A stretch of 64,000 nucleotides of DNA from Candidatus Omnitrophota bacterium (GTDB taxonomy: Bacteria; Omnitrophota; Gorgyraeia; 2-01-FULL-45-10), in assembly GCA_041650935.1 (NCBI GenBank), contig JBAZKH010000001.1, positions 219,337 to 283,336 of the forward strand, written 5' to 3'. The notes beneath the pieces were generated by a model that did no database searches, was not told the DNA's origin, and saw nothing but the letters and a program-made list of their open reading frames with translations. Position numbers and translations under genes: made by a program. Below are positions 20,343 to 52,912 of the stretch, piece by piece (positions within the stretch are counted from its first letter, which is position 1; every line of letters starts with the position of its first letter).

Positions 20343-20380
20343 GATGCGCTATCCTGTAACGGCCTTGCCGGTCCAATCTT

Positions 20381-22305: not shown

Positions 22306-22741
22306 ATTTATCACAAGCTTCTTTTACCTGGGACATTCCCGCTTCATGCCGGGGACGATGGGCTCTCTGGGCGGATTGGTTATCTATTTCCTCGTGAGGA
22401 ATAACGAACTGCTCTATGGTTTTTCCATACTCTTCCTATTCGTGCTGGGCATAATGTTTTCCGGCGAAGCGGAGAAGATCTACAAAAGAAAAGATGCAAA
22501 GATGATAGTGATAGACGAAGCATGCGGAATGCTTCTTAGCCTTTTCTTCGTGCCCATGAGCCCATATTCCGTGATCCTCGGGTTCTTTATCTTCCGTCTC
22601 CTCGATATCCTGAAGCCGCCGCCTGCCAGAAGGATGGAGCGGTTGACGGGATCTCTCGGTGTGATGTTCGACGATATCGTAGCGGCGATATATACAAATC
22701 TTTTCTTACAGGTACTATTCAGGCTCCTGGTCAAGGTTTAA
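22289..22741 (+). CDS. pgpA: phosphatidylglycerophosphatase A
   Basis: PgpA family: GHSRFMPGTMGSLGG...VIDEACGML. Confidence 0.8.
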   Translation: MKRRIKFITSFFYLGHSRFMPGTMGSLGGLVIYFLVRNNELLYGFSILFLFVLGIMFSGEAEKIYKRKDAKMIVIDEACGMLLSLFFVPMSPYSVILGFFIFRLLDILKPPPARRMERLTGSLGVMFDDIVAAIYTNLFLQVLFRLLVKV

Positions 22742-22758
22742 CAAAATTATCTTTCCTC

Positions 22759-22787: not shown

Positions 22788-22820
22788 ATTTGATATACAA
22801 GTAGGAGGTTCGAGCGATAT

Positions 22821-23006: not shown

Positions 23007-23036
23007 TTAAAATATAAAAAAGTTAGTTATGTTTCC

Positions 23037-23065
23037 TTGACTCACCCTAGCTAATATGATACTAT
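23037..23065 (+). promoter_or_regulatory. candidate promoter (TTGACT-17-TACTAT) for the giant-ORF leader
   Basis: By eye, upstream of the leader hairpins. Confidence 0.3.
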
Positions 23066-23143
23066 TACAGTACATATTTTCTAGGATCCCCGTTTGAGTT
23101 TAACTCGGGGGAGTCGAGGGTCTTAAGAAGAGAAACCATGCTT

Positions 23144-23167
23144 TTGCCGGGTGAATTCACCCGGCAA
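23144..23167 (+). promoter_or_regulatory. 24-nt perfect palindrome ttgccgggtgaattcacccggcaa in the giant-ORF leader (copy 1)
   Basis: Nearly identical to the palindrome that immediately follows the giant ORF stop codon (52192-52220). Confidence 0.6.
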
Positions 23168-23184
23168 GATGTAAGGTTTTTATA

Positions 23185-23233
23185 GACCAGATAGCCTAGA
23201 ATTGACGCTTGGCAATCTGGTCTTTTTCTTTTT
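23185..23233 (+). terminator. intrinsic-terminator-like hairpin (agaccagat...atctggtct + T-run) between the small ORF and the giant ORF
   Basis: 9-bp stem with a 21-nt loop followed by tttttcttttt; it lies in the 5' leader, so it could be a terminator or an attenuator. Confidence 0.55.
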
Positions 23234-23261
23234 GTGTGTTAAGAGAACAAAATAGATAGGA

Positions 23262-26200
23262 ATGATGAAAGCCGAAGAAGTCTTGCCAAAATTGAGCCAT
23301 CACAGGTTACCTTTTGCGGTCAGGATAATTGCGTCGATCCTGGTCGTCACTTTCCTTGCCCAGGATATCGTCTGGGCCCATCCGGATCCATTCGTAGATC
23401 AATCCGCGCAGAATAACACGCTTGCTCCCAGCACATTCTTTAAGCTGAAAGATTCAAAAGATAGAGGCGGCGCGCTCTTCGTCGAGTATCTTATAGAAAG
23501 GCATCCTAAATTTCATTCAAATATATCTCTAATAGCGATACAACATATACTTGAAGATAAGGATATACTCGCCTGGTTTGATGAAAATAAGATCACATGC
23601 AAGCCGGATTATGCTAACGGCGGCCAGTTGGGTGCGATAAGCATAAATATTCCGACAGGATACACGTTTCGTTATTATGATCCTGATTTTGACCGGGAAA
23701 ATTCATTTACTTGCGATCCGCAGAGCGTAATAGATTCAAAAGAGCTCAATCCTCGCCTGCATAAGCAGATCATAAGAGCGGGAGACAAGACAGCGACGCC
23801 GACAGCACAGGCGCAGCCAGAAGGACCCCCAGCCACATTGGCTACTCCCCTGACCCGCGAAAAGGCGATAACTCATTATACGGATAAGATGGGAGGATAC
23901 ACATGGGACAATCTCGGCGCAAAGGCGCAGGAGTCCCTGATTGCTAAATACTCTGCTTTAAGAGAGATATTTCATGTATTCGATCCGGTATGGTTCTTAA
24001 GGCAGCATATCAACAGGAGTTGGAAGGAAGAACTTGCGCATAGCTTAGGCATAATAGCCATATGGGCGGGCATGGCGCTCTCTTTTGTCATAATGACTAT
24101 CTTAACTTCCTCGTTCCTCGATATAGCCTATATTAATGCCGTACCTTACGCTTACCCCATAGCGGTTCCGATAGCGCTTCTTGCCGACTGGCTGATCCAT
24201 AGGGCCTGCGATATGCTGGTCATCAACTATAGCGTCGCGCTTTCACGAGGCCCAGACCAGTACGATTTCACCAACATAGTCGATGCGGAGACGCTCTCCA
24301 ATTTTGTCGATAAACTTCAGGAGAGCCAGACGTATGACTACGGAGAGTATGACAGCAGATTCCTACGGCCGCTATTCGAGCTTTTATTCACGAAACTCAG
24401 ACAGGATTTTTCAGGTTCGGAATATTTTATAGCGGAATGCAGAAAAGTGCTTGCCGAAAAAGACTCGTATGAGTTAAGGCGCATGATGAGCGGAGCATTT
24501 TTAAAATCTTTCGAAAAAATTACACAGAAACCCGGCACTGAAAAAGCCTCGGTCGGGTTCTACGGGATGCTCTTTTATTATCTTACGCGCCGCCCGCGCC
24601 CGTACTTTGGGCATCTATACCGCACCTTCATTATTACAAGGCCGGAAGCGCAGCTGGCATTCGGAAAACGCGGCAGGTCGTATTATAGCCGCGGGGAGAG
24701 CGCGGCCAGTTATTACCGTAAGGGGTTTCTGTACGGGCAGTATGAGAATCCGTATTTTACCTCTTCCATACATATGTATGAAACTACATCCCGCGCCGAC
24801 AGGCGGAATACCAAAAATGCGCTGAAGATCCAAAAAGCTTTAGCGATATGGCAGGCGGAGGCAAACCGGCGTGACGATTGGCGCATGCGCCGGCGTATAA
24901 ATAATTTCATAAATAGAACAACCGTCCTCGAGATCGATGTCAAGACAAGCTTGTTTTTCTCGGATCCGGAAAATAACGTAGTGCGTCTTATCCATGCGGA
25001 AGGACGGCGATGCGCGCTGAACCTGCCCGCGCCTTACCTCGCCAGGCTCAGACTTGACAGCGAAAATGACGATGATATGAGAGAACTTGCTACCTACCTG
25101 AATTTCGGGCAGGAGCTTATCGACATATCCGGCAGGGTGATAAAGATGGAAGCCGGCAGTGAAATGGATCGGGAAGCCCGGACCATTGCTACCGTCTCTT
25201 TCCTGAATAATACGAAAGATCATTTTGTAAGTACCGATCGTTTACGCAGGAACCTGGCTGCCTTCATGGAAGAAGATACCATGTCTATCTACACGGACCT
25301 GGCCCGCGAACGGTTTGACAGGGAAAAGGAAGCAGAGTCCTCTTTAAAGGCGGGCATAAAGGGCGGGGAGAGGGAGCAGTTTGCTCGCGCAAGAGACATC
25401 TATAGCCGGTTGATGTACCGCTATGATGGCGCGGGTATGTACTCGAAAGCGCAGGAGTCCTGTGACCATATGTTTTCCGCCACAGAAGGGGCGATACTTC
25501 ATGACAGGGGTGTTCTTACCTGCCCGTATTCCATAGAGAATTTATTTACAGCGCTTCGTTTTGGGCGCCGTGATGAGTTCTTGTCGGGCTTGAGGACCGT
25601 AACTACGGGAAGAGGACTGCCGCGTTATATCGAAAGAAGGGAGGTGGAGATCTTTAAGACCATGCTTTCGCCTTCGAACGAAAAGCGCAATTCATTCCAG
25701 GATGATGTGCTGGAGACCCTATCCGCGCAGGCTGAGGCTATGGATATCGAGAAAACCGGCTCGTTTATGGAGTCTGCCAAGTCTATCCTACATAATTATT
25801 TTGGAAAGAAGATAGATGATAGATTCGGCGATCTGGAGCCGTATGAAATAGAGTACCCTGATTTGTACTATAGCGCGGAAAAACCCGTCATATCTATCAT
25901 TAGCGGCGGACATTACATATCGGGCGAAGAAGTAACAAGAAACGCCGGCATTATAATAGACGCGGTGAGGAGGAGAGTGCCGGCTTCAAGCGGCAGGGAT
26001 TATCTTTCCGGCGGAGGGATAAGGGAAATTATAAATTCTGTCTCCGGGAGATTGGATGCCCACAGGTCCGGATTTTTGCCGAAAGAAAGGGAACTTTTGC
26101 AAACCGCGCTCAAGAGCCTCCGGGTCCTCAATATAACAGAACTGAATTCAATAACGCTTCATAGCGAAAAATCTCCGGCATGCCCCGACTTATGGATGTT

Positions 26201-47200: not shown

Positions 47201-50200
47201 GGCCGATAGCAAACTTATCAAAGGATGGCTGCTGGGATTTAATACCCTGCCCAGGGCTCCCGATGCCGCAGGTGATGAACATTTAACCGCCCTCCAGAAA
47301 CGCCTCTCAATGCAGGGGAAACTATCCAATACTATAGGTCTCGCAACCCAGGCCCTCGATTATATCGGATGCGATGAGTCTCTCCTCCAGGAGTATCTAT
47401 TCCATGAATTTTTCTGCCCATATTTGGGTCATGAGCGGACAAGGATCACGCAAGAAGAGATATTCAAAGAAAATTATCCGCAAGGCTCTTCCACTGCCAT
47501 TGGGCTCGATACCCGCCCGGGCCACAAAGACGGCGAACTGTCGGCGGTATTGCAATTGGTTATAAGCGCTATGCATGATGGAGTGCCGGGGTCCCGGCCC
47601 GGATGGTATAGGAAAAAGAGCGGCCATACATATCTCATGAGGCCGCTATATCCCGAAAAAGCTGTTTCAAGGGCGAAGTTATTGGACCCCGCGGATGTAA
47701 GGATAGACCTGGGGAGCATAAGAAAATATATGGATGAACTTATGCGGAGCGGTAAAAGATTTATTGTCGTGACTTCGCCTCATGTTGTCGAACAGATGAG
47801 GGTTTGGGGATTCCCTTACTATAAGGAATTGCGCAAGAAAAGCATTCTTGTGAAATCCGTGCACTATAAATACATGGACGGGCGGTTGGGGCGTTACGTG
47901 AAAGACGCTCTTAAGATCGAAGACCGCCCGGATGTGATATTGGGGATAGGCATGGGATCCGTATCGGACTGGTCGAAGATCATGGGGCATAAATTTTCCT
48001 GTGATGTTACGTTGATCCCCAGCGCTCTTTCGACGAACGCGCCGTTTTCCGCGAATGTGGCCGTGCGCGATGAGAATAAGGACGGCGGGGAGTTCGGTGT
48101 ATATGGATGGCCTGCGGGCGCCGCGCGCACCGTTTGCGTCGACAGCAGTTTCATCTCCATGAACTGCCGCGGAAACCTGTCCGGAGCGGGGGATCTTATC
48201 AGCTGCTGGACGGCGCTTCTTGACTGGAGGTTTGCCTATGAACACGGCGCTGAGCCGAAGGATCCGGAAAGGGATAAGGTGTTTAAAGAGGCATTGGAGC
48301 ATCTTAACGAGCTAGCCGATACAGCCCCCCGCATCAACGCGAATACTCCCGATGGTATTGAGACGGCCGCGAGGCTTAATGCCAAAGTTTCCAGGCTGAT
48401 GACTAAGTTCGGTTCGGGCAGGCCCAAAGCCGGCAGTGAGCATATACTGTCGGATACTCTTGAAAGGGTGACCAGGCCCAGGAAGATACTTCATGGCGAG
48501 CAGGTGGGCGTATCGACTCTTATAATGATGTATCTCTATAGCAAAATTTACCGGCGAAAAGGCGGGAGATACCCGAAAAATGTTGATGTTAAAGATCTCT
48601 TTAAATTAGTTAAGGCCATGGGGATATCTTTGGACCTGGAAAGGATAGGGCTTACGAAAGATGATCTGGAAGAGGCGCTCATTTCCGCAGAACCCAGGCC
48701 GGGAAGATTTTCCTATTTCGATGTGAATAAAGTTACCCGCGAAGAAGCCCTCGAAGCCGTAAACGCGATCTTCCCGGATAAACCGGCTAGGCCTGCCGCG
48801 GCGGTAAACCCGGCCGCCAAAATTACCCGTCGTTCACTGACCCGGCCAGTGGATGGAGCGGATAACAAGGTTTCCGGGGCCTCTACGGTTGAGGTGACTG
48901 CGGAGGACCTTATGGGTTGGGAGAACGATGTCAGGGACAGGCTGGCGTATCTTAACGACAAGATCGGAGGCTTGGAAGATACGATAGGGATGCGCAAATC
49001 TGATGAGGTGAATCTCTCCCCGTTTAAGCGGGATGAGTATGATTATTACCCGCTTCATACGATAGAAAAACTTATCGATATTAAAGCGAAGTTTGAAGAG
49101 GAGCTCCGATGGGCGCGGAGATTTGAGCAGGTTATTCAGGCCGCCGCGCCGCGATCTTATGACTGGACCGCAGGTCCTGAAGTGACACGCGCGTATCCCG
49201 TATGGGCGCTCGGTAAATTCAATCCAAGATTAAGGAGGGCCTTTATACATTGGGGTATTATAACGGTCGGAGATTTAGTGAACCGGACACCCAAAGATAT
49301 TGTCTCTGCCTGGGATTGCGACAAAGGAATGCTTAAAGAGTTGCAAGCCAGGCTTAGCGAACGCGGCCTTGCGTTAAGAGAGGATCCGGTTAGTTTCCAC
49401 CCCGGGGTGGAAGATTCGAGCAGGGTGCCTCAAAATGGGACGTCTACGGGAATACTTTGGAATAATATCTGTCTTTTGGGTTATAATCCGCCGGAATATC
49501 CGGACGACAAGCCTCTAATTGTTACGGAAAAAGATTCATTGAACGCGGTTCGTGATTTCTTTACACGCGAAAATGGAAAAAATGCCACTTTTATTCTGTA
49601 TGATATTTTTAAAGAAGATATAAATCTCAACTCCATCCGTTCAATAACTGCATCGGGATGTCAGGCCGGATGGTTCTACCAGGTATATCGAGCCGCTATT
49701 GAATTGAATGACGGCAGGAGAGGAGTTGTTATTTTACAACTTCCAGCAAGGTATGGCGACAGAAACGAGCTTATCGCCACAGATTATAATAATTTACAGC
49801 ATCTGTATCGACTCCATCCGGGTATCGTAGTGCGTCCAATTTGTATTTCCGAAAGCCGTACAGGCAGAGACGATGGGACTTCTGCGCTTAATATTATTGC
49901 TGCCGAATGTTTAAGCGAATATATGGAACTCAATCCACGCCAATATTCGCCTTATGCTGTAGTGTCCCCTTATTATGGTTTCGAGCTTAATGCTTTCAGG
50001 CGAAGAGAGCCTGCCGCGCAATATCAGCTTGACGCCGATCGTCAGAATTCAGAAAACGTATTGAAAGGACTTGTAAAGAATATGGTTATTCTGGCGGACA
50101 TAAATCTCGAGACAGAAGCGGTAAGCTTTGTAAGTCAGATAGACATTGGCGCCGGTGATTTTATGGTAAGGCCGCGTGTTGACGGACAATTTGACGCTAA

Positions 50201-52184
50201 ACTCATTACCGCAAGACATATTGAGCGCAATGCCAGGCCGGAGGATTTTATGGAGTATCTTCTCCGCGGGCGTCTTTTCTTTAAGGCCAAACCATCTGGA
50301 TTTCAGGCAAAGCCAATTTTGGATGGCTTCGCACAAGGTTTAGCGGAGAGGTTCGGAGAAAAAGAAGGCGAAAGATATTACAGAAAATGGGTGAGATTGC
50401 TTATGAGAGAAACGGAAAGCAGGCTTGAGACATTGCAATCTTTATATTCTGCGCTTCAAGATGAACAAGGGCCGATATCAATACCGCCGATATTCGAAGC
50501 GTGGCTTAGAAAATATTCCGAAGAAGAGCTTTGTGAAACACGATTATATCCAAGGCAAAAAAGAGTTGTATTGGGATATTTGGATCACGGAAAGGATCGT
50601 GATAAGTTTCGTGAATTCATCAAAGAGGAAATAGGCGAGATACAAAACGTTACAGACGCTCTTTGGGAAACGATAGATCATGACTTTAGCCAGACCATCA
50701 GCCAACAAAATAAAATTACCTATAGTTTCCACCCCGGGGTGGAAGATTTAGGCGAGGGACAGGAGAAAACAGAACCGTCCCCAAGGCTGGCAGCATTTAT
50801 AATAGACGCAGTGACAGGCCGGCAAGTTGAAGCTGTGATAAGAGAGACTGAACCTGGCCACATTGTTGTAGAGGTGGATGGAGAAAAAGAAGGGCATCTT
50901 ACTTATACTATAGGTACATTCAAAGGGCAGAGCATGTTGTATATCAGAGATATTAATGTGGAACCGCGTAATCGGTTTAGCGCTAAACCGGAAAGAAGAT
51001 ATAAAGGCGTCGGGTTGAGGCTTATGCAAGCGGTTGCCGCGATCAGTTTAGAGTCTAATATAGCTAAAGGCGCGCTTCGTCTATCTTCAAGGAGAAATAA
51101 TAAAGATGCTCAAGCATTCTATGAGACTCTTGAGTATTTACGTTTCGCCAACAGGCGCGGGCTTTGGCGCTCTAAGTCCGAGCCTGGGGATGTTATGATC
51201 CAGTGGAACCTCAGGTCTCATGACGCCCGAACGTTCATCAATAACATCGAATCACTGATTAAGCGCGGTCATTTTAAGAATGGGGGCGGTCCGGAAAGAA
51301 CCGTCCTGAACCACTCCCCAGCACCCGAGGTACAAAGTGCAAGTGGTGCTGGATCGGGTTCAGGACAGTCCCCAGCCGCCAGCTTTACTGTGTCGGATGA
51401 GTCAGGGAAGATAGCGTCCGGCGTTCAAGCGCCGGTGCCGCAACCGGTGACTATGACAAATACTATCGCCGCGGAGCATTATATGACTTCGAGAGATGCC
51501 GGCTGGCAGCCTGCGGCTGCAGCGGTAACCGCAATAACGCCCGCGCCCGCAGCGCCTATGGCAATAGAAGGCAACGCGGCCGGCATTGTCGAATTGATAA
51601 ACGAGAGATTCAAAGACGTCAATGTCAAGAGCGGCGCCGGTGTGGTGCTTTCAGAGAACCTGTTCCTGGATAGCGAAGAGGACAGGGAGGAACTGGAGAG
51701 GATAAAGCTCGTCTTCGCCGAGGCAATAAAGAGCGGCGCTATGGCTATACTGAATCTTGAGGAGATACGGACAAGGGCCAAGAGAAGCTCGTCCAAGGAA
51801 AAATTGGCCGTAATACTGGCCAGGGAAGACTATGAGAGCGATAAAGCGCTGTGGGAAGGTAATGGCAAAATGGTCCCGGCGAAAGCGAGCGTCCTGATAT
51901 TGGGTGATAAACTGACAGGCGCGAACTATCTCTATCTGCAGGGCGTGGTCGGCCTGGCGAGGGCGATCATGTCGGGCAACGCTCAGGCGATCGGCTATTA
52001 TTATAAGGTGCTCGCCGGCGTGGATATAGACGACAGCGTTTTGAAACTTCTCGACTCTGCCGAGTGGAACAATATTGCTTTTGCGGTCAAGGCGATATTG
52101 AGTTTCAGAAGTTTGGGCAGGATAGACGACAAAAAATTTACCGCGCATCGGGAGAGGATGGAGACACTGCTTATAGCGGCGTAA
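23262..52184 (+). CDS. giant mosaic membrane-anchored protein (9,640 aa). Contains GDE-like, 2x GH13 and GH77 alpha-glucan enzyme domains; sigma-70 region 2 + 2x region 4; AT-hook; Upf1-like SF1 helicase; Fe-ADH/DHQS-like; RNAP alpha-CTD-like; GNAT
   Basis: A single uninterrupted 28,923-nt reading frame. N-terminal hydrophobic anchor (LPFAVRIIASILVVTFLAQDIVWA). The domain signatures are listed in the separate domain features. Confidence 0.85.
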   Translation: MMKAEEVLPKLSHHRLPFAVRIIASILVVTFLAQDIVWAHPDPFVDQSAQNNTLAPSTFFKLKDSKDRGGALFVEYLIERHPKFHSNISLIAIQHILEDKDILAWFDENKITCKPDYANGGQLGAISINIPTGYTFRYYDPDFDRENSFTCDPQSVIDSKELNPRLHKQIIRAGDKTATPTAQAQPEGPPATLATPLTREKAITHYTDKMGGYTWDNLGAKAQESLIAKYSALREIFHVFDPVWFLRQHINRSWKEELAHSLGIIAIWAGMALSFVIMTILTSSFLDIAYINAVPYAYPIAVPIALLADWLIHRACDMLVINYSVALSRGPDQYDFTNIVDAETLSNFVDKLQESQTYDYGEYDSRFLRPLFELLFTKLRQDFSGSEYFIAECRKVLAEKDSYELRRMMSGAFLKSFEKITQKPGTEKASVGFYGMLFYYLTRRPRPYFGHLYRTFIITRPEAQLAFGKRGRSYYSRGESAASYYRKGFLYGQYENPYFTSSIHMYETTSRADRRNTKNALKIQKALAIWQAEANRRDDWRMRRRINNFINRTTVLEIDVKTSLFFSDPENNVVRLIHAEGRRCALNLPAPYLARLRLDSENDDDMRELATYLNFGQELIDISGRVIKMEAGSEMDREARTIATVSFLNNTKDHFVSTDRLRRNLAAFMEEDTMSIYTDLARERFDREKEAESSLKAGIKGGEREQFARARDIYSRLMYRYDGAGMYSKAQESCDHMFSATEGAILHDRGVLTCPYSIENLFTALRFGRRDEFLSGLRTVTTGRGLPRYIERREVEIFKTMLSPSNEKRNSFQDDVLETLSAQAEAMDIEKTGSFMESAKSILHNYFGKKIDDRFGDLEPYEIEYPDLYYSAEKPVISIISGGHYISGEEVTRNAGIIIDAVRRRVPASSGRDYLSGGGIREIINSVSGRLDAHRSGFLPKERELLQTALKSLRVLNITELNSITLHSEKSPACPDLWMFGLNTSLPYHTKADLDELPAALNRDIREEFPNTLLLSSDILDSIENDKALLHEYILCVLLLSHVDQATSRYLRAALFPENQRDVKAQVLRRGEKFQTLNNVRMLEQIFGNRIASEEPSSDGPILTTPKTREKAIAYYTRKMGEREWNRLTSVDQELSIGKYAARREIFHLFNPIWFFRQHPNTSWKEELIRGLGIIAIWAGMTLSFVIVTAITSLLLDISYSSAVPYAYPIAVPIALLVNWLIHRTYNILAVKHKFAMLAAGDGSESDKLPSATDAERKKALDARLAAALRKLFFKDSRAMTALEAGLPHFSKKERGRDTAISLLGIIAAGWSAEAKDLILKWTGMEEGGLVPNVIRHDNNPQDDALYAAPPPTSDAALWLVEAVHKYIEKSGDRAMLDCVVDNKGKKVIDVLRNIYNRYSTPGGSDSVVCSDPATGFVWVRKKTTWMDTDSTERQGYPVEIQALWYNALNKMCSLDKSVAAEYKSLADKVKSNFHEYFWNSAESTVFDILGADGFETAAESKDRNRRDPAVRCNQIFTVYFGLAEGADAKRILESTKRRLLVPGGLKTLAAPERIYVQDTRDDGARAKDEAEGRVIGWPHAVYYKYYDSNKSADDRNKAYHNGTAWPWLYPFYWAAAVKCGSEAKDTSVDTMVKEYLELMSDPWTGGNASSGGSLPELLDAEASPAPDGRTKHYPKGCGEQAWSIACAIWGLDELSPAPVQPGRFTNGDNPKTKRSGIRYCRFKSDKIGISPIDALMGISQTAVLTPETRKDFSDIVRKVKAGINDREANGPIDEDASDFLDELIEEGRVRAAQMDFEAIYLDDILYIDEGLLADDKEDELVKCLREAVRTSARSGKLIIEVDAHGLANAFGTTIDNIPDIIMDGGLGDIPAKIIRSSDKAPGVLHLNPGYLHCDHRLIKDIWDWFAFELGADTVWLKGVWEESMLSRAMAKEWHRLDVAAGRDSPHAKRENGSRYDVYNYMVDKRLIGSGNGAANTNEAMRNFVKSCIKPKGLNIMLDFVTNQIAADAPCIFNDNTKNLVWSWDSDAEFYAHMRRLGRADWSDKRLEETFLIGAEVRGYREYSRVAKGMLSGTGGIRAMDEDELQIWINKGTLPPRFTSYRIVRHLENGSLTTALINYSEEVNRRYMGGIVNMMADMTLEGGIRGDIVHRAYWNKYFDDHLAPLGMSREEAGKKMPGEIMDELMADLRREHPGTRFLGEVHDSPGKDGNIKFFARMGERQGINATAYYKDYSDEVLSRGAAQNVRAYLFGVNDEEQRGRTTMFTNHDEATGLEALGSIERVRAAAGMCAMHGGPVLIPLTEILPERRPDELWPSDRGHPAHKNWRDSAVHIPQYDFTRLDVPLAGQCHFFGRPGFTKARRHWVNAECVRKFQEDIAVALENDEGIHAIVKPAYIDSLENSGLVAMIRRSRKEDLLTICNDSDVSTEIMICLDRVFGANSTEPPIEGELGKVLYSEGTKVYSGPRTLIVELPAYGYSNFSFRKTEASRKKEEAVKALVEEVHKRARAEEKTWAGNFYQHYRDRLGEREFGVVFEDALERLLFSGEDIERRGAAWIISHDEFLGPVALKQDWDRMKLEELFRPLEDRAVLPFVLAHETKGLWAITKFLEEVPSRKEHWIVAQLLAAAMSVTDMQLRTEIMKEVFSSMPVTLPSISGEGRLLMPSGTEETLMQQHYKQTSLVSVKKLTDMIGPELAAKIYLKRYGNHNNDEPAYEIAGEETNLTLKDAASKNGWIAANTSWSQANGNTLARQQLVKLKAESREAMDAFALTVGGEAYLLFFGDGHKGKILPESFEFLPEPDPAHNSPGLYILFDAWKKDSYGVVTKSGLISDGLPVDIPAGGQMILMLAPPEKERPEILQVSVEFLGGMDKLGDNLKQLLDDIYAAPGGIIWFVGAHPKGEIGKLLNDGPNLSGIYARDIEHGGRNYRVATHGPVKSVTSGDTASAFCVTDLKDPVVIGKMKTVLDALGRRRPITVFDLTGHLSIDSPVILEHPDWCRPFTGVLQEWRQGGIPENLKEEDILSMPGIWGWGFLLSVPLADPKKPLVEDPIVRKLTERGFVFGRDPLDKDRIRVLVCHHTSDFGPMPDIASLDLNHPEVRQYYLDTFRAWLEAGGNGFRIDLAYHFPSELLGLFKKRFPKLTCITEYYNVFGQMIDVHHRTGIDGFYDHEELWKKVRDSFSMADSSEPLQAWLFDFQKYLASGVFVHYLSNHDEDTALNIFGGDRRKYLAALAFIAFLPGYLMINFPDALGLMWRGYTDAAGKTKYDILRELPFAKFMRLARRANQGLDGETYEGLPYDVSLLGNVNNIVASRSADIFRKGIGFVVPRREDGIAWYKRTYHGKTAIVMINYSPLPKQVDLKRYITEPGINVGTAHFLPFESRIYFIEDGRLSTPRGIVNFNEFYRKALEEFYGDVSDGAWAERFCVMCRNEFQGRSDRDFRAVFRDIKSALRFMFRYGPDNVKSAADWMVKDHEKGLWEQFKYAIEADFYAMADQSDPDSPQARRILRGLLEDTATFPGLRDTAFGYVNNALGEAFNSGDVMRMRNIFYVEAGLLRQEDELSWAGKFIEKHKNSWAGKFDGTHKIDWRSDGLLLAFRDVVLAWNRSEGPMHDAAQWILYNLQSDFSAPFLGYYRLTIADINSRLERGERSTLGDMKDLLSEVAEIPGLAAQIGNDAIGGMHKGVPNLTNEDSLAGLLGMEASLLQQMHGSGWAKIFTENYKDKWQGPSGREQNRVFLAAFRNVALDWNSSNDESTSFAAKWMLYNPDSPYSAEFSRPYVEELDEIGRAFKKPGSPAFDALAAFLARADKISGLREHLTGKAIETVRGAAESCSGDRLKSLLRLEANFLKELRREGWAREFIESHRKQWKDHDFTDVILEWNRSEDVPTFAAAQWMLFGPDSNFSSVFFDKYKSDINDMLESVKKTPSEHGPEVSRTLELLLHDARYIRGLNKRLLEEMTQRINIGHAPEDIVFYCEIAAELARAQADPQLAARIFKLVQDARSHPPQPELSAFLMTYNLFILTVSFVTWLTGEMLGTNNLIGLYGMSGYLFAVFLPFAASILVHEFADYFATWIKTGERPYLPRFKGLSLQVTPSFEGQEIVNIGPYASAALTFIALPILYLAGVSPLFLAITAAYSFVHTIFSDNFLFLKAAAKKLGMLQATYWWNEKKHGGILCSLFSGKRKDDQGIGDLKWLDMFIDFADKQGADMIFLLPTTQINPGGIPGLSTPYGSISTFAQSAIMYLPLDEYLDKAKLGEYIDSFVAGDEAKRQKLLEALRSRKIDYPFIYAFKKHCWWQVFKDRYPGMSVDENTEFDSYVRQNRDWIEDYSLFHALFAKFDKAWWDWDDKYKNRDEKALDEARETCKEEISFYKYMQWLYDKRWKEVRVHAREKGKRIIGDMPLYPEPNSADVWAYQDLFIGSKRAGAPPEPGISDLGQKWQFWPYNWKYKSKEVLGFLEKRIRHMAQLYDGIRIDHVLGLLQEWNVDKSDEVKPTEGEWVPEDNKVAIKFGRKNLRRLAKVAARTNTLLIGEDIGGRDKSIIKMMDDVCERLPNFYLFHMIGWLEDKRQDKKHLWTFDAGHDQPCRFAFRWEEMKSVNNEIDMRGVRHFLASHGETIADSDTPEDVEKKVSRALRRMPFYSFTLQALLKAPKEARINSPGTQNFENWSWRSQDIEDLLEMEDLGYYYREEPLAVAEEKNNRGVGTPFAGDAAFSNDNVSVSSLIAGLGLKPGASQDDIDGVIIEAVNDPAGNDTLLQILGFNKTQREALAQALMPSPKVRSLFEKERNFAGIEYIVRVPGIKEARIESAREKVMLGIQCWHDYGHKFAKFVALAYNIKKGDKEDEVRGKIEKIMGEYAPILRDREFLEKMSDYFEHYPPVMLSLVYVLWAQIRAGPEEEIKPLTEALLKVSRINIGTPLEYIPYYKLIAVKYLALLGVDNTHSIIVPLAQHPQEDDFFRTAFQTLVFIAASNRLRSLFDFVGPKADPKAARLAVRIVVAAHPADSVYAKFLDLAAQYPDAEVRRMAEEAKEKAFPSSAAPWEIDDQANRAADPNDGLTPTDMWGEEDLSGKAPQKEDGEIYQQVQLMLQVAPPVLVEVTNIKVWKRLLQELGHKGEAYFLGETDDMPLKTTAAWANKIYPEHTSEDVQHIYEDATRIPLANMFKMFVFGDFPAVKFHERLHAAMSLRALKEGTLYRKEDDSVFNGTERNDAKALKALSGKYDDAREAFRGLESALSNYPGGELSQELFAWLGTIDRYPDFIGKPSFPEGSEEAEYLKHYFDPKKRSTAVMLEPTRQFIAVARRHPEIVEFLRQYYGRLQKFTQETAPFLGFTSGQIAAAFGGYAPRNGGGGAGMVLGWAPLKKRHGWLPTSWMLFLPIFGLYVVDWNRGINRPEPPEIPVFENGHAGGELFCLSKKRAMIPVAGAVKVKRDGEYIVFYHENEADVLYTKDGEEARIKVISEDQNSGIAIIEENNNICGFNGENVAYATRAVLNREVEFFRERRLRHYAAAPLTAKKKEPIDDPVSLNRRVTEDVSHNLKRLTRDGLVFMDICAGLFKLIKKRPPSNYAELSRWVDSKDHSNTPFPAREDLDYDLDALMEGHSSFSLIRQRLNFPAVDISEYNWLRQGWAVLCPELITLLKEYGNDRQKGYAAMWDHLNELSSAAKIVMVGNALEEEVRIRRELSEGERLELVKIKLLSKLAVEHPGVLIGIVRQLYGLRYYHELGIIEDMYARIECDIPLEIKDIVIDASQKIDIAKKLHRIYGLPLEEGLYCVTDEEINGRLKEKFLTAENSNRLSFEKLKNLIMVLDNFVNAPPYSKSAKVSAKKDLRFNDYERASNIVHRLRAIDEHRFAVTLQRLERVVSRWEERVDRQGAYSQAGLVKLLWTFWHSTNIGEEMARYTTDMIGKPPVFTDLKYNIIFGIEDDVSAGPKKSKAKPGRPRGSYKKKAGKDSIEPGMLDAVLAVGRWWYNKVKKLGLDEEDLRDRTALNIAPWLEETVKGIIFAGIYALLCCYNPAHPLLNIAMFTVMDIGVGIVFTLLHLDSARAPPQTPRDILIAPALISLFDAIMFPLAVIVTTLTVSNSILIVIAIMMIAIPQVTIFHYEINRRVYELRKEGANLGYAMLGGDKPSAAAGEAVSDPSGSANITRRIADILSDGRPRAREKLVRMFKGSIPSDQVMDAIDKMIELRDITEDGSVLRSESSLVSPEELLIRDAVRFMADAGYPISPKRNEYLSAEDERRLVEDGSEKSKHILLLSQLLWIKSHAEYLHRRNRGIPVIDFMHAGIKAVNDVLNEEDAATRFDPSKSRLSTYVKRPITWKMAKLVEKKSPLRLQSISHDKELAYRDAGPMPQASRAQKDEIRKLLLYVDERESEIIQLFFGLNGVSLSPEEISVLYKGRLLPDSIQNSVSNILKKLGLPKDGGQGCVAPLSPSQREHLFSLKTIRMVEDFMNNPQRADRLAPRDREVIRLMYGLEGRQTLSSRSTAGLLGIAHSRVDQLRDRAMSKIRKEYESTWEEASRMAGGITEEEMCLAHEEAIRKLQFDDDFTPNGNLPTVYEFALELPHRAENLSVKMVKRLIDIYNLRHPAAPLEFRGYSTPGTLGEPEPLPVTDGLRESAGYSMEALVNGEVLTPRANFVSLIARQKALAYSIEQGDLPRVKSQVTQAITRLSMRARNLQAGKVARKLVGSPAVKLANNKNLLGNAVGYLQKLVEAGMVFSSEPAGTDIPACALGSAALVLEERLLQGDALIFDLMLAKEGYTLYANSVGSKRDAFDKEARGMMAAFAVYCTFSGDERKHLESIYVLKDGTGKKKLGFLPLLKNIYDKAVINEAFDIEGPIKEYVKGAYPGIENEESFKLTREDLSVGSQNDLLPAYDPEFLKSTRRHPCNITELPDGFNYSRIVSVGTKSVVVKVYKPKAGSTDYDLLSIKYYNDFQGEGTITLTAKTGGEYTLGGEGGLPCYDAAGMIAHLNGTRVALRAILDPAQNKEIVALLDGLSFLAKPVEITSKISNRENRTIYVQFVTKEQVEIARRQSARKTTQAREFVPVEQMLDTGILIVPGENLEDKDRIGEKAEGLKKAFNGMGFENVSIGSLDAAANYAHVVIFVEPDEETYGAWNSTFETASRMYPGTEIFKWSTKSGGLYRCFKGWDGERIKGHWTVPVAAQYIAHSIEYDFKFYVGDRFRFAFPPEVIDLPAAKKSGYDNPERTDRAGLKEKMDKLLRAAETYVEKSSAYEKEIVDRSELAFNSRPAYEFADRVPRLIFENLKSAGAEEARGLSLREDDEIKIQFGDDGEIWNAVVAEVDEGRVVCTVPQGLDLKQDLGKTGRIKKRYNDVPAKVQLEFLQYAMEPDSGHESRKPLVDIALGLQPNRTTDGKDITRNAILFNDKVGNNENQLQMVSQALNGRSIELGWGPPGTGKTQAAAAEVIYQNWCMGKTQLIAAQTNKAVDNLLLKAKEMGIKVYRVGNHPGVIDPKLRENWIYADRPREPREEDFKTNQEYISARRKYKDDYDAWRMALVNEIVSGRAIVGGTCMGIAMDRFINKELLGHYLEDFRYFKFDRCIIEEASVASFAELLLVLGKAKEKAFIIGDHHQLGLSPMQPELVERLKAASLGKDEIDAMQTSLFEFLLNQDHFTLTMLEDCYRLTPLQVKLTNFFYDGKLKAMREVSPERNRASLVVIDTKNVPHSDEQIGTSWINGYEADLALGVIERLGKAADMDVAHLGLITPYNAQITYLRNELRKDMLRNWPGREAYERISRVMGNVGTVWPFQGREKPVIVISPVCSNSSGRTGFMSWKMWNVMTSRAQESLIVILDSDTFLASRQEKVPEFTRHMLKLAKEEGTYIELTPGKPKPNLSGIVTVLKQTLAGEYKGRLPLFPGRSSGGTQGRPAPAAPAEGSGEDKEKGQIARGDPKALVDALLAQPIKPMRGSIDKQWISESLKRRVGRSRLSLREKAIMRARIDDVLKNNRLAEFDAIVLKDQADSKLIKGWLLGFNTLPRAPDAAGDEHLTALQKRLSMQGKLSNTIGLATQALDYIGCDESLLQEYLFHEFFCPYLGHERTRITQEEIFKENYPQGSSTAIGLDTRPGHKDGELSAVLQLVISAMHDGVPGSRPGWYRKKSGHTYLMRPLYPEKAVSRAKLLDPADVRIDLGSIRKYMDELMRSGKRFIVVTSPHVVEQMRVWGFPYYKELRKKSILVKSVHYKYMDGRLGRYVKDALKIEDRPDVILGIGMGSVSDWSKIMGHKFSCDVTLIPSALSTNAPFSANVAVRDENKDGGEFGVYGWPAGAARTVCVDSSFISMNCRGNLSGAGDLISCWTALLDWRFAYEHGAEPKDPERDKVFKEALEHLNELADTAPRINANTPDGIETAARLNAKVSRLMTKFGSGRPKAGSEHILSDTLERVTRPRKILHGEQVGVSTLIMMYLYSKIYRRKGGRYPKNVDVKDLFKLVKAMGISLDLERIGLTKDDLEEALISAEPRPGRFSYFDVNKVTREEALEAVNAIFPDKPARPAAAVNPAAKITRRSLTRPVDGADNKVSGASTVEVTAEDLMGWENDVRDRLAYLNDKIGGLEDTIGMRKSDEVNLSPFKRDEYDYYPLHTIEKLIDIKAKFEEELRWARRFEQVIQAAAPRSYDWTAGPEVTRAYPVWALGKFNPRLRRAFIHWGIITVGDLVNRTPKDIVSAWDCDKGMLKELQARLSERGLALREDPVSFHPGVEDSSRVPQNGTSTGILWNNICLLGYNPPEYPDDKPLIVTEKDSLNAVRDFFTRENGKNATFILYDIFKEDINLNSIRSITASGCQAGWFYQVYRAAIELNDGRRGVVILQLPARYGDRNELIATDYNNLQHLYRLHPGIVVRPICISESRTGRDDGTSALNIIAAECLSEYMELNPRQYSPYAVVSPYYGFELNAFRRREPAAQYQLDADRQNSENVLKGLVKNMVILADINLETEAVSFVSQIDIGAGDFMVRPRVDGQFDAKLITARHIERNARPEDFMEYLLRGRLFFKAKPSGFQAKPILDGFAQGLAERFGEKEGERYYRKWVRLLMRETESRLETLQSLYSALQDEQGPISIPPIFEAWLRKYSEEELCETRLYPRQKRVVLGYLDHGKDRDKFREFIKEEIGEIQNVTDALWETIDHDFSQTISQQNKITYSFHPGVEDLGEGQEKTEPSPRLAAFIIDAVTGRQVEAVIRETEPGHIVVEVDGEKEGHLTYTIGTFKGQSMLYIRDINVEPRNRFSAKPERRYKGVGLRLMQAVAAISLESNIAKGALRLSSRRNNKDAQAFYETLEYLRFANRRGLWRSKSEPGDVMIQWNLRSHDARTFINNIESLIKRGHFKNGGGPERTVLNHSPAPEVQSASGAGSGSGQSPAASFTVSDESGKIASGVQAPVPQPVTMTNTIAAEHYMTSRDAGWQPAAAAVTAITPAPAAPMAIEGNAAGIVELINERFKDVNVKSGAGVVLSENLFLDSEEDREELERIKLVFAEAIKSGAMAILNLEEIRTRAKRSSSKEKLAVILAREDYESDKALWEGNGKMVPAKASVLILGDKLTGANYLYLQGVVGLARAIMSGNAQAIGYYYKVLAGVDIDDSVLKLLDSAEWNNIAFAVKAILSFRSLGRIDDKKFTAHRERMETLLIAA
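23828..24260 (+). other. giant ORF: duplicated module A, copy 1 (TREKAI..Y..KMG...WKEEL...GIIAIWAGM, with TM helices)
   Basis: ~140-aa module repeated at 26571-26980 with high amino-acid identity and extended nucleotide identity. Confidence 0.7.
26571..26980 (+). other. giant ORF: duplicated module A, copy 2
   Basis: TTPKTREKAIAYYTRKMG...SWKEELIRGLGIIAIWAGMTLSFVIVTAITSLLLDISYSSAVPYAYPIAVPIALLVNWLIHR parallels copy 1. Confidence 0.7.
27230..28340 (+). other. giant ORF: (alpha/alpha)6-barrel glycoside hydrolase domain, glycogen-debranching-enzyme (GDE_C / amylo-alpha-1,6-glucosidase)-like
   Basis: YHNGTAWPW hallmark, upstream GLVPNVIRHD...YPVEIQALWYNAL, downstream GCGEQAWS. Confidence 0.6.
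28900..30720 (+). other. giant ORF: GH13 alpha-amylase-family module 1 (divergent) with C-terminal beta-sandwich domain
   Basis: Region I-like MLDFVTNQ, region II-like GGIRGDIVH, region III FLGEVHD, region IV FTNHDE. A domain-C-like segment follows: LVAMIRRSRKEDLLTICNDSD...TLIVELPAYGYSNFSF. Confidence 0.45.
32250..33420 (+). other. giant ORF: GH13 alpha-amylase-family module 2 with domain C
   Basis: DLNHPEVRQYYLDTFRAWLEAGGNGFRIDLAYH (region II, nucleophile Asp), ITEYYN (region III Glu), YLSNHDE (region IV), LPGYLMINFPDALGL. Domain C: IAWYKRTYHGKTAIVMINYSPLPKQVDL. Confidence 0.7.
33640..35150 (+). repeat. giant ORF: four tandem ~145-aa repeats (W.(E/K)F.E.H...W......D..L.WNRSE....AA.WML..PDS.FS)
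   Basis: Repeat starts at ~33650, 33940, 34378 and 34813, i.e. a period of ~435 nt. Confidence 0.65.
35275..35740 (+). other. giant ORF: internal transmembrane block 1 (about 4-5 predicted helices)
   Basis: LSAFLMTYNLFILTVSFVTWL ... AALTFIALPILYLAGVSPLFLAITAAYSFV. Confidence 0.55.
35763..37100 (+). other. giant ORF: GH77 4-alpha-glucanotransferase (amylomaltase/MalQ-like) domain
   Basis: GIGDL, STPYGS, DMPLYPEPNSADVWAYQDLF, GAPPEPGISDLGQKWQFWPYNW, RIDHVLG, LLIGEDIGG. These match the conserved GH77 blocks in order. Confidence 0.75.
41040..41100 (+). other. giant ORF: AT-hook-like motif (KKSKAKPGRPRGSYKKK)
   Basis: GRP core flanked by basic residues. Confidence 0.45.
41255..41570 (+). other. 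giant ORF: internal transmembrane block 2
   Basis: IIFAGIYALLCCY..., IAMFTVMDIGVGIVFTLL, ILIAPALISLFDAIMFPLAVIVTTLTV, ILIVIAIMMIAIPQV. Confidence 0.55.
42040..42790 (+). other. giant ORF: sigma-70-family-like module (region 2 followed by two region-4-like HTH segments)
   Basis: GIPVIDFMHAGIKAVNDVL...RFDPSKSRLSTYVKRPITWKMAK compares to sigma region 2 (DLIQEGNIGLMKAVEKFDP..FSTYATWWIRQ). SEIIQLFFGLNGVSLSPEEISVLYKG...SIQNSVSNILKKL and REVIRLMYGLEGRQTLSSRSTAGLLGIAHSRVDQLRDRAMSKIRK compare to region 4. Confidence 0.6.
45440..46720 (+). other. giant ORF: SF1 helicase domain, Upf1/DNA2-like (AAA_11/AAA_12)
   Basis: Walker A GPPGTGKT, IEEAS (motif II), IGDHHQLG (III), ITPYNAQ, TVWPFQGREK (V), VMTSRAQESLIVI (VI). 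Confidence 0.75.
47750..48730 (+). other. giant ORF: Fe-dependent alcohol dehydrogenase / glycerol dehydrogenase / dehydroquinate-synthase-like domain
   Basis: RFIVVTSPHV..., ILGIGMGSVSDWSKIM (GGGS-like loop), LIPSALSTNAPFS, HGEQVGVST. Confidence 0.5.
49195..49385 (+). other. giant ORF: RNA polymerase alpha-subunit C-terminal-domain-like helix-hairpin-helix
   Basis: LGKFNPRLRRAFIHWGIITVGDLVNRTPKDIVSAWDCDKGMLKELQARLSERGLAL aligns with alpha-CTD [53 protein letters not shown]. Confidence 0.55.
50790..51175 (+). other. giant ORF: C-terminal GNAT N-acetyltransferase-like domain
   Basis: Motif A RYKGVGLRLMQAV and motif B AQAFYETLEY. Confidence 0.6.
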
Positions 52185-52316: not shown

Positions 52317-52895
52317 TTAGCAGGTGAATTTTGTTTCGTAGAGTTTTGTGTAGACCGGACCGGCGGGTGTCAGTTTACTGCGGAATAATATGACAGACTT
52401 TATTATTTCTTGCCCCTTGACCTTGCCGGGAAAGATCTCCTGGCCGGCAACGTCTCTTTCCCGGCAAGATTTCGCTTTCTCTTTCAACGCTTGTTTATTC
52501 TTCGGCGAACGGACGCGGCCGATAGTCAGGTGGGCGGTAAATGCCCTGGTCTCTTCCTGAAATCCCAGTTTTGACAGGCTTAGGTCTATCTTCTTCGCAA
52601 GCTCGGTCGATTCTTTTGCGCCTTTGTCTAAACCCACCCAGATCACCCTCGGGAACATGCCGATATCCTTTAATGAAATTTCGAACGGTTGTGTATCTTT
52701 TGCGATTGTATCGAGCGCCACCTTTACATCCGCGCACAGCTTTTCGTCGATCTCGCCCAGGAATTTTAAAGTGAGATGGATATTGTTCTTCTCGACCCAT
52801 TTGACGTCGGCGCCGGCGTATTTTAAGTGAGATTGGACCTGCGCGAGGGAATCTTTAATCTCTTCGGAGAGTTCGATGGCTATAAAAGTACGCAT
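52317..52895 (-). CDS. thpR: RNA 2',3'-cyclic phosphodiesterase (2H phosphoesterase, LigT/ThpR)
   Basis: Two H-x-T-x motifs (IHLTLKFLGE and AHLTIGRV), ~190 aa. Confidence 0.85.
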   Translation of the reverse strand: MRTFIAIELSEEIKDSLAQVQSHLKYAGADVKWVEKNNIHLTLKFLGEIDEKLCADVKVALDTIAKDTQPFEISLKDIGMFPRVIWVGLDKGAKESTELAKKIDLSLSKLGFQEETRAFTAHLTIGRVRSPKNKQALKEKAKSCRERDVAGQEIFPGKVKGQEIIKSVILFRSKLTPAGPVYTKLYETKFTC

Positions 52896-52912
52896 CTACT
52901 AAACCCTGCACC

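Follow-up and report, generated by a model that had tools for sequence, protein, structure and literature searches.

The stretch of DNA analysed here, 64,000 nucleotides (nt) from a Candidatus Omnitrophota bacterium (contig JBAZKH010000001.1, positions 219,337 to 283,336), is referred to throughout as 'the window'. It contains an open reading frame (ORF) of 9,640 codons which, judged by its sequence and that of its relatives, is one real, single gene of this organism. The protein it encodes, 'the giant', belongs to a seemingly undescribed, lineage-specific family of 'head-cargo-tail' proteins, ranging from ~1,200 to 9,640 amino acids (aa), in which the ends and the chromosomal slot are conserved and the interior is swapped. 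The giant is the longest member seen here, and we give an even chance to the proposal that it is an exported array of enzymes, grown by recombination, that acts at the interface with a host. The gene itself is as follows:

23262..52184, + strand: giant ORF, ATG start, 9,640 codons plus stop.

The first-pass annotation of this DNA, made by a model from the letters alone, described a single uninterrupted frame of 28,923 nt, and so it is: the ORF list and the stop-free translation of 9,640 aa agree, and the window contains no N. An in-frame stop at 23253 makes 23262 the earliest possible start, and this start is supported because the first residues of the giant (MMKAEEVLPKL) align with those of a relative, P0017 (MNSENVLPKL). 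That such a frame 'cannot arise by chance' is also right. Over the same span the other two plus-strand frames contain 577 and 608 stops, ~6% of codons, and at this rate the chance of 9,640 stop-free codons is ~0.94^9640, or ~1e-259. The GC content was misjudged; given as ~55%, it measures 0.48-0.54 across the ORF, about 0.50. Of 20 tiles of 500 codons, 18 favor frame 0 by codon-preference scores trained on the 23 neighbouring genes; the exceptions are the tiles at aa 8501 and aa 9001, where frame 1 is level with frame 0 or slightly above it. Codon usage in the cargo is less host-like than in these neighbours, with GC at third codon positions (GC3) of 0.46-0.61 versus 0.63 ± 0.04, and becomes host-like in the tail tile (the last 140 codons; GC3 0.65). 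Tandem Repeats Finder reports one trivial 42-nt array in the ORF and nothing else. The only internal repeat of the giant is a module of ~175 aa, present twice, that we describe below.

Could the frame be an artefact, that is, several genes joined by misassembly or sequencing error, or a decaying pseudogene? Its codon bias is weaker than that of its neighbours, the protein collection searched has no exact copy of the 9,640-aa sequence, a short-read Logan contig stops ~240 nt before the start codon, and a metagenome pattern scan (aa 4700-5700) returned no second assembly of the central part. Against this stand, besides the improbability of so many stop-free codons, a single head at the start and a single tail at the end with no internal relics of either, catalytic motifs that are intact, and flanking gene order that matches orthologous loci. 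Two independent sequences are also colinear with the giant and uninterrupted. One is the ORF of L014, an independently assembled metagenome contig of 830 kb, which aligns with aa 1-340 and 1256-3996; the other, P0019, is a partial protein from an NCBI Omnitrophica metagenome-assembled genome (MAG) and aligns with aa 2201-5025 and 5947-6139. Together they cover aa 1-340, 1256-5025 and 5947-6139. Finally, the window's RecA and PNPase are exact matches of Candidatus Omnitrophota MAG proteins (MFA5142749.1 and MFA5142738.1) encoded on a contig of 710,442 bp, and the NCBI accession numbering between the two would fit a single coding sequence. We regard an artefact as extremely improbable. These exact matches also bear out the suggestion of the first-pass annotation that the frame is an Omnitrophota-type giant ORF, for giant multi-domain ORFs are already documented in this phylum (PMC10066038; bioRxiv 10.1101/2023.11.21.568195; bioRxiv 10.64898/2026.06.07.730766).

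The family came to light through homology searches with the two halves of the giant. These gave six matches, all of them giants of 3,500-7,000 aa and mostly from Omnitrophota. P0017, P0018, P0020 and P0022 match the window protein over its first ~185 aa and its last ~200-290 aa, and differ in their interiors. Among 1.84 billion representatives, a profile of the tail found 114 clusters, 102 of them at E <= 1e-10. Both head and tail are present in 54 complete proteins of 757-7,013 aa (median 2,197), and the 9,640-aa window protein is the longest carrier of the two seen in these searches. 'Tail-only' entries are mostly contig-end fragments or have mis-called starts. The head is never second or internal in any family protein. 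A stop codon follows the tail directly in 11 of 11 GTDB genome loci, and at these loci each of the four complete short tail-bearing ORFs (1,193-2,149 aa) begins with a head. Protein collections may under-represent proteins of more than ~7,000 aa, and larger carriers of head and tail may be missing from the family census; the scans for genome and metagenome loci were pattern-based, and locus counts given here are lower bounds. The conserved ends of the giant are these:

23262..23378, + strand, aa 1-39: Sec-signal-peptide-like segment, with a basic n-region up to R21, an h-region (IIASILVVTFLA) and a c-region, QDIVWA, before HPD.
23379..23831, + strand, aa 40-190: head, comprising a disordered linker with an invariant L54-A55-P56, then a compact α+β domain (aa 65-172).
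51582..52181, + strand, aa 9441-9640: tail, a four-stranded α/β core plus a helical bundle, ending ...METLLIAA-stop.

The family head profile matches the giant over aa 11-196 with an independent E-value of 7e-59 (hmmsearch), and the tail profile matches aa 9441-9640 at 1e-62. Both ends are predicted with confidence to be folded, the α+β domain of the head with a predicted local distance difference test score (pLDDT) of ~95, and the tail with a pLDDT of 89.5 and a predicted template-modelling score of 0.89. A membrane anchor had been noted at the N-terminus, and by hydropathy and by the head layout of the family the giant does begin with a hydrophobic signal or anchor. Its h-region is 12 residues long; those of the family are 10-13 aa, with a median of 12. 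The head consensus is ...RIIA..L..TFLAQDIAWA|xPD, in which the n-region ends with R/K21 and the c-region reads QD(I/V)(A/V/S)W(A/S), and 29 of 31 aligned heads display small-x-small followed by xP[D/E]. By these sequence rules, the layout is that of a signal-peptidase-I signal peptide with a putative cleavage site, and with unusually strong conservation of sequence. A twin-arginine translocation (Tat) signal was considered and rejected, the twin arginine not being conserved and position 21 being a single R or K; so was a lipobox, Cys being absent.

The other end is conserved to its last residue. The tail finishes no more than 3 aa from the C-terminus in 113 of 116 proteins, and the final residue is Ala in 110 of 113. 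The family C-terminus (window 52167-52181; tails P0017-P0138) is nearly invariant as ...L-φ-(A/S/M)-A-COOH, which we take to resemble non-polar C-terminal recognition tags such as ssrA-like tags and PDZ or Prc ligands.

A few members stand out in one way or another. P0078 (4,552 aa) alone has an internal tail, at aa 2850-3017, truncated at position 158 of the 197-position profile; the 1,535 aa that come after it include no head, and recombination, a frameshift or faulty assembly could each account for it. P0022 (4,767 aa) and P0018 (6,252 aa) are direct tandem paralogues, in that order, at ~125-158 kb of the 224-kb contig Ga0265297_10000157 (L019, L022), where the end of the P0022 tail roughly coincides with the start of the P0018 head; their locus lies outside the slot beside pgpA that most members occupy. 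And L003 (CAZHIO010000172.1), a tail-bearing sequence of 3.2 kb without an informative flank, is labelled 'uncultured Planctomycetia bacterium', which may stem from faulty binning or mark a rare instance beyond Omnitrophota.

The second property that unites the family is position. In the window the gene lies between two conserved pairs:

21715..22741, + strand: pgsA and pgpA, the conserved upstream boundary of the slot.
52317..54145, - strand: ligT and cinA, the conserved downstream boundary, followed by recA, recX, alaS and his genes.

Upstream we find ribE, ligA, a Xer-type recombinase, a CCA-adding enzyme fusion, an nrnA-like gene, truB, ribF, pnp, dut, ftsK, rodZ, a miaB-type gene, pgsA and pgpA; downstream, ligT and cinA on the opposite strand, then recA, recX, alaS, hisD, hisB, hisH, hisA and hisF. 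Homologues of ligT and/or cinA occur just 3' of the tail in 9 of 11 genome loci (ligT in 8, cinA in 7), and in five to six of these recA, recX, alaS and his genes follow as they do in the window. On the other side, pgsA-pgpA adjoin the head in three of four genome loci, and the series ftsK-rodZ-miaB-pgsA-pgpA lies upstream in L004, L007 and L010. A scan with the head profile located 17 metagenome loci, 11 with pgsA-pgpA immediately upstream. In all, the window's gene order is matched by L001, L002, L004-L007 and L009-L011, and by the 11 metagenome loci. Most members of the family, then, but not all, occupy one slot by synteny: pgsA-pgpA / gene / ligT-cinA-recA.

What occupies the slot varies enormously. 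The string of independently folding modules between head and tail is almost wholly different from one genome to the next. Slot genes encode 1,193 aa in L010, 1,262 in L007, 2,051 in L004, ~3,500 in L005, 7,013 in L006 (= P0020) and 9,640 in the window, and in pairwise comparisons (phmmer) these have only head and tail in common. The pattern holds among close relatives as well. In L001, cinA and ligT are 82% and 71% identical to those of the window, and overlap with the giant is confined to its last 245 aa. In L013, ftsK is 86% identical, and the overlap consists of the first 193 aa and weak matches. In L011, RecA (90%) and AlaS (76%) are the nearest to those of the window, yet no tail is more divergent (30%); tail divergence therefore does not track the flanks. 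Modules also recur elsewhere in other members: GDE_C is found at position 4194 in P0080, and GH77 at position 1617 in P0020.

Signs of how such changes might come about are visible near the start of the giant, in a duplication that was missed by BLAST self-comparison and found by inspection of hydropathy:

23766..24290, + strand, aa 169-343: linker plus two-helix transmembrane (TM) hairpin module, copy 1 (hydropathy inspection and alignment).
26457..27029, + strand, aa 1066-1256: linker plus TM-hairpin module, copy 2; 55% aa identity to copy 1, and 80% DNA identity over a 255-nt core.

In its colinear part L014 is 47% identical to the window protein over 2,814 aa, and it lacks aa 341-1255. It has a single hairpin copy, the beginning of which resembles copy 1 in context and the end of which resembles copy 2. 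We infer from this arrangement that aa 341-1255 represent an insertion of ~900 aa, marked in L014 by the single copy, and that the hairpin-bracketed block is the footprint expected of family genes that recombined, unequally or ectopically, at a linker module common to them. P0019 points to a second replaced block: it is 55-97% identical to the giant over aa 2201-5025 and 5947-6139 and, by this alignment, wholly different between aa 5025 and 5947. Growth by fusion of tandem family genes was considered and rejected, there being no internal heads or tails in the giant or the family apart from the truncated internal tail of P0078.

Tiled searches with profile hidden Markov models, a check that the first-pass annotation had proposed, were run as two offset Pfam tilings and gave significant domain matches. 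Together with NCBIfam and searches of PDB sequences, these confirm that the giant is a mosaic of unrelated modules. Seven are recognised by the databases, each in single copy:

27087..28325, + strand, aa 1276-1688: GDE_C, an amylo-α-1,6-glucosidase (debranching) domain (PF06202, 9e-60, 203 bits versus a cutoff of 21).
32508..33335, + strand, aa 3083-3358: divergent core of glycoside hydrolase (GH) family 13, neopullulanase/α-amylase-like (neopullulanase 4aef, 2e-6; motifs GFRIDLAYH and SNHDE).
35802..37265, + strand, aa 4181-4668: GH77 4-α-glucanotransferase (PF02446, 3e-80, 270.9 bits versus a gathering threshold of 25).
42153..42785, + strand, aa 6298-6508: sigma-70-like part (TIGR02937, 9e-10 over two stretches; PF04545).
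45429..46784, + strand, aa 7390-7841: Upf1-like superfamily 1 (SF1) helicase (PDB and Pfam matches).
47709..48764, + strand, aa 8150-8501: glycerol-1-phosphate (G1P)/glycerol dehydrogenase-like domain of the Fe-ADH superfamily (4rgq, 3e-14; NF002022, 9e-27).
50838..51131, + strand, aa 9193-9290: GNAT acetyltransferase (Pfam; acetyl-CoA motif RYKGVG).

The GDE_C region also matches the archaeal-type GDE in NCBIfam (1e-34), and a weak C-domain match accompanies the GH13 core. In GH77 the catalytic carboxylates are all intact—D4471 (RIDH), E4528 (GEDIG) and D4578 (GHDQ)—and are kept in two homologues; we equate them, by assumption, with Thermus D293, E340 and D395. The sigma-like part combines a region-2-like motif, RFDPSKSRLSTYV, with two region-4-like helix-turn-helix (HTH) units; region 4 at aa 6455-6506 scores 1e-5 in the Pfam tiling and 4e-8 (PF04545) on a short segment, and region 2 and the first HTH are assignments made by eye. 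The helicase has a Walker A motif (GPPGTGKT), motif III (GDHHQL) and motif V (TVWPFQGRE); IIEEAS, at the Walker-B position, has EEAS instead of DEAS, and motif VI was not found by a pattern scan. The match of NF002022 extends over positions 23-345 of the 350 in the profile, and at 94 bits is far from the equivalog cutoff of 413; by these scores aa 8150-8501 are a member of the Fe-ADH/glycerol dehydrogenase superfamily only, below the level of a G1P dehydrogenase equivalog. Conserved motifs such as these point to working enzymes. The two offset Pfam tilings found no peptidase, SecA, polyketide synthase/non-ribosomal peptide synthetase (PKS/NRPS) or adhesin-repeat domain, and NCBIfam no peptidase or SecA. 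The giant is, as had been proposed, neither a repeat adhesin nor a PKS/NRPS, for it has no tandem repeats and no such domain in any Pfam tile.

The presence of a helicase and a sigma-like part raises another possibility, that the giant is an anti-phage defence protein built upon the two. The PADLOC models MkoA/MkoC (Mokosh) match the helicase region at 5e-34, and NCBIfam gives weak matches to the MzaA sigma (0.0012) and the PLuB helicase (2e-13). These matches, however, span only the generic Upf1-like SF1 core and are far under their cutoffs (PLuB 48.7 bits versus 999; MzaA 17.8 versus 800). No other defence component was found, and the helicase is one exchangeable module, lacking in most family members. 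We reject this reading, as very improbable.

About two thirds of the giant are 'dark'—without a database match—yet conserved between orthologues. Four dark modules recur in relatives, and two clusters of hydrophobic helices lie further along the chain:

24264..25856, + strand, aa 335-865: dark module, common to 11 family representatives at varying positions.
37284..38282, + strand, aa 4675-5007: dark module, present in P0020 (51% identity, position 3588) and P0121 (41%, position 447).
46950..47615, + strand, aa 7897-8118: dark module, present in five members (P0099, P0110, P0096, P0137 and P0020) and in L005.
49389..50732, + strand, aa 8710-9157: dark module, shared with the giant P0021 (29% identity).
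35277..35681, + strand, aa 4006-4140: cluster of ~4 hydrophobic helices (Kyte-Doolittle scan only).
41259..41567, + strand, aa 6000-6102: cluster of ~3-4 hydrophobic helices (Kyte-Doolittle scan).

A profile search of aa 335-865 against PDB sequences gave no match, Pfam on ten copies of this module gave nothing consistent, and relaxed Pfam searches of the dark stretches aa 1697-3079 and 4674-6240 gave noise only. Between the window and L014 the dark stretches are 50-60% identical, equal to the GDE_C and GH13 cores, with gappy linkers of low identity in between. Conserved dark blocks stand out in this comparison at about aa 1856-2155, 2356-2655, 2756-3055 and 3356-3655. Because they are conserved as well as these cores are, and are set apart by such linkers, the dark stretches look like real domains. 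The 'at least a dozen recognisable modules' of the first-pass annotation are thus seven by Pfam, NCBIfam and PDB sequences; the number rises above 12 if the family-specific conserved blocks are counted as modules. Over the whole protein, the crude Kyte-Doolittle method finds five hydrophobic clusters, with ~12 helices.

A beads-on-a-string layout of this kind, with low-identity gappy linkers between conserved blocks, is also what a polyprotein might look like, made as one chain and then cut into separate enzymes on either side of the membrane. Cleavage by C39 or S8 peptidase domains has been proposed for other giants (bioRxiv 10.1101/2023.11.21.568195). In the window protein neither Pfam tiling nor NCBIfam finds a peptidase domain, and, the two hairpin modules aside, no repeated linker motif offers itself as a cleavage site. 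We consider a polyprotein unlikely.

What, then, might the giant do, and where? From start to finish the cargo consists of GDE_C, GH13 and GH77, then the sigma-70-like part, the Upf1-like helicase, the G1P-dehydrogenase-like domain and GNAT, with hydrophobic clusters and dark domains between. The first three combine the activities needed to debranch and disproportionate α-glucans; the nucleic-acid and cofactor modules come after the aa 6000-6102 cluster. In the explanation that we propose, the gene would have grown by insertion of blocks of modules, through recombination at the shared linker/TM-hairpin modules. The chain would be targeted by its head to the Sec pathway and the envelope and tethered to the membrane by its hairpins, the cargo would form an exchangeable array of enzymes at the contact with a host or prey cell, and the invariant free C-terminus of the tail would serve as a recognition handle for a partner; in each of these four roles we have moderate confidence.

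Several observations favor export. The signal-peptide layout is found in 29 of 31 heads, and rapid turnover of cargo, its lower GC3 and the occurrence of multiple and tandem paralogues all fit interaction with a host. In attached cells, peptides of the giant ORF of V. archaeovorus are reported to rise 3-fold (PMC10066038), and 94% of long Omnitrophota proteins are predicted to have a signal peptide, TM helices or both (bioRxiv 10.64898/2026.06.07.730766).

Others weigh against it. Much of the cargo is of cytoplasmic type, needing ATP, NAD(P)H, acetyl-CoA, nucleotide sugars or nucleic acids (helicase, sigma-like part, GNAT and G1P-dehydrogenase-like domain), and small, single-segment relatives carry HATPase_c, an ATP-dependent sugar kinase, 6PGL-like, RidA, glycosyltransferase (GT) family 2 and sigma region 2 domains. 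Judged by the placement of K and R near the hairpin modules, the two flanks would both lie in the cytoplasm, at odds with a head that is exported. The Pfam tilings and NCBIfam reveal no protease in the giant and no known translocation domain; the 64-kb window contains no secretion, pilus or glycoside-hydrolase neighbours, and the annotated neighbours (23 kb up, 12 kb down) are all housekeeping genes. Head and tail have no structural relatives, profile searches against PDB sequences gave no match, and their roles are read from position and conservation only. Lastly, topology comes from a crude hydropathy scan and the signal peptide from sequence rules, and the parity of TM counts across the family is too noisy to help.

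Several of these points would be accommodated by a membrane-tethered cytoplasmic scaffold for multiple enzymes, in which the N-terminus and the hairpins tether the chain inside, and the cargo serves the cell's own glycogen/maltodextrin metabolism as well as regulatory and nucleic-acid roles. The cargo types would then have the cytoplasmic cofactors and substrates that they need. The K/R-rich flanks on both sides of the hairpin modules, with an uncharged loop, would be explained, and the housekeeping neighbourhood, next to two phospholipid genes (pgsA and pgpA) and in a slot that is conserved phylum-wide, would be fitting. A reading of this kind is listed by Nielsen & Lui for their TM-only class (bioRxiv 10.64898/2026.06.07.730766). 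Other features speak for export instead. A basic n-region and an acidic c-region orient the N-terminus inside and the remainder outside, and an h-region of 12 residues with a conserved small-x-small site is typical of a cleaved signal peptide rather than of a stable anchor. Moreover, the cargo is fully replaced between genomes with RecA 80-90% identical, which is unexpected for core metabolism. Mainly because such replacement is hard to reconcile with core metabolism, we prefer export and a host interface, to which these sequence comparisons lead us to give a little under or up to an even chance; the cytoplasmic scaffold we consider possible, and less likely.

We suggest more doubtfully still, as a notion less probable than the scaffold, that head-cargo-tail genes might constitute a dedicated, phylum-specific system for exporting or presenting enzymes, with slot and hairpin modules serving as a site of 'cassette exchange'. 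If so, the head would serve as a specialised signal for export or targeting, and the C-terminus of the tail as a handle for docking or quality control. Episymbiotic Omnitrophota could rapidly re-equip one polypeptide with enzymes for different hosts, and the same accretion, taken to its extreme, would yield the giants of 10,000 to >100,000 aa.

MARTX and polymorphic toxins offer a parallel in design: conserved terminal regions bracket exchangeable, unrelated enzymatic modules that are shuffled between strains. The likeness is architectural only, with no relationship of sequence or fold, and the cargo of the giant is metabolic and regulatory, not recognisably toxic. Pfam and NCBIfam find no RTX or glycine-rich repeats, cysteine protease domain or type I secretion signal in it, and the window has no type I secretion neighbours. 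In content, the combination of GH77, GDE_C and GH13 recalls eukaryotic and archaeal glycogen debranching enzymes and the bacterial MalQ/GlgX pathway. Unlike in these, thousands of residues as well as membrane segments lie between the three modules in a chain of 1 MDa, and their NCBIfam scores are far under the equivalog cutoffs.

Within the phylum, comparison is with three bodies of work. Seymour et al. 2023 described Omnitrophota giant ORFs of >20 kb (PMC10066038), and West-Roberts et al. 2023 a set of 'Archaeovorin'-type genes of >90 kb, for proteins of >30,000 aa (bioRxiv 10.1101/2023.11.21.568195). The window protein shares with these giants its phylum, a single very long ORF, an N-terminal region without known domains, several TM segments, carbohydrate-active and other enzyme domains, and large unannotated stretches. 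It differs from the Archaeovorin type in size, being at 9,640 aa and 28.9 kb below the >30,000-aa set, and from most of that type in having no divergent SecA DEAD/preprotein-binding domain (Pfam tilings, NCBIfam), its sole helicase being SF1 Upf1-like. Of the Archaeovorin domain set (GT, methyltransferase, GH, peptidase and NUDIX), the two Pfam tilings recover in it only GDE_C, GH13 and GH77. Nor does it have type II secretion, pilus or carbohydrate-import neighbours among the annotated genes 23 kb up and 12 kb down, and its context differs in this from the neighbourhoods of the largest Omnitrophota giants (bioRxiv 10.1101/2023.11.21.568195; bioRxiv 10.64898/2026.06.07.730766).

In architecture the giant matches Class 1, the 'multi-enzyme metabolic cluster', of Nielsen & Lui 2026 (bioRxiv 10.64898/2026.06.07.730766). 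As there, many distinct Pfam families are present and none dominates (in the window protein seven, once each). GNAT and sugar-metabolism content is accompanied by a predicted signal peptide and TM architecture, and the same tension exists between cytoplasmic-type enzymes and predicted export. The giant falls 360 residues under the arbitrary 10,000-aa threshold of that catalogue. It is in fact modest in size, published maxima for Omnitrophota proteins being 85,804 and 147,155 aa, and the earlier statement that very few bacterial proteins exceed 9,000 aa overstates rarity within Omnitrophota, where lengths of up to 147,155 aa have been published. As a single giant ORF in this phylum the window gene is otherwise ordinary. 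What sets it apart is kinship. Omnitrophota giants have been termed 'poorly conserved' (PMC10066038; bioRxiv 10.1101/2023.11.21.568195), and the Nielsen & Lui catalogue comprises for the most part singletons that are unique in sequence. The family described here, by contrast, is united by synteny and by its two ends, head and tail, across lengths of 757-9,640 aa. Shared heads and tails, the pgpA/ligT slot, positional orthologues ranging over 1.2-9.6 kaa, and hairpin-bracketed insertion go unreported in the accessible portions of all three papers (PMC10066038; bioRxiv 10.1101/2023.11.21.568195; bioRxiv 10.64898/2026.06.07.730766).

Giant ORFs of Omnitrophota are a recognised puzzle: these surveys describe them as showing little conservation, as mostly unique in sequence and as opaque in function, and their size puts them beyond experimental handling. 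Here, a giant of 9,640 aa is tied to relatives of 750-1,300 aa by a common head, tail and chromosomal position. The consequence is a definable family with searchable profiles, the small members of which are experimentally tractable for export, cleavage, topology, and the binding partners of head and tail. It comes with a testable model of growth, by insertion of module blocks through recombination at shared linkers inside a vertically inherited slot, and with a sharper question, namely why enzymes of cytoplasmic type should stand behind an N-terminus that resembles a signal peptide.

The region just upstream of the gene has features of its own:

~23003-23016, + strand: box ATAAAAAAGTTA, which precedes the promoter-like site and is conserved upstream of orthologous genes.
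23037..23065, + strand: promoter-like site, TTGACT-17-TACTAT with TG (consensus match only).
23072..23261, + strand: structured leader (dG -73.6 kcal/mol, z -6.4 versus shuffles), its last hairpin terminator-like with a T-run.

The box, in the form (T)ATAAAAAAG(T/C)TA, lies just 5' of the -35-like element at 23003-23016 in the window, ~4280-4292 in L004, ~6690-6702 in L007 and ~6990-7003 in L010. Its conservation together with the -35/-10-like elements suggests that the gene has its own conserved promoter, in which the box could be an UP element or an operator. Within 23072-23264 the leader includes a perfect palindrome, GCCGGGTGAATTCACCCGGC; a terminator-like hairpin, AGACCAGAT...ATCTGGTCT, with a T-run, lies ~30 nt 5' of the start codon. 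The leader has no match in Rfam and may be a transcription attenuator. The short-read contig L012 (Logan SRR8542065, same strain, ~ window 12728-23025), which breaks ~240 nt 5' of the giant's start codon, does so inside the intergenic region that holds promoter and leader.

Between pgpA and the giant there is also an ORF of 61 codons (22821-23006, + strand), with a strong promoter-like site, TTGCAA-17-TATAAT, at 22759-22787 and an AGGAGG Shine-Dalgarno sequence. It was not found in the orthologous loci L001-L011 by tblastn and has no PADLOC match; the 61-aa gene is also called on L012, the independent Logan contig. Further upstream, 8536-11148 (+ strand) encodes an unusual fusion of 870 aa, in which a DHH-DHHA1 phosphoesterase, a CBS pair and PolyA_pol/CCA-adding head domains are joined.

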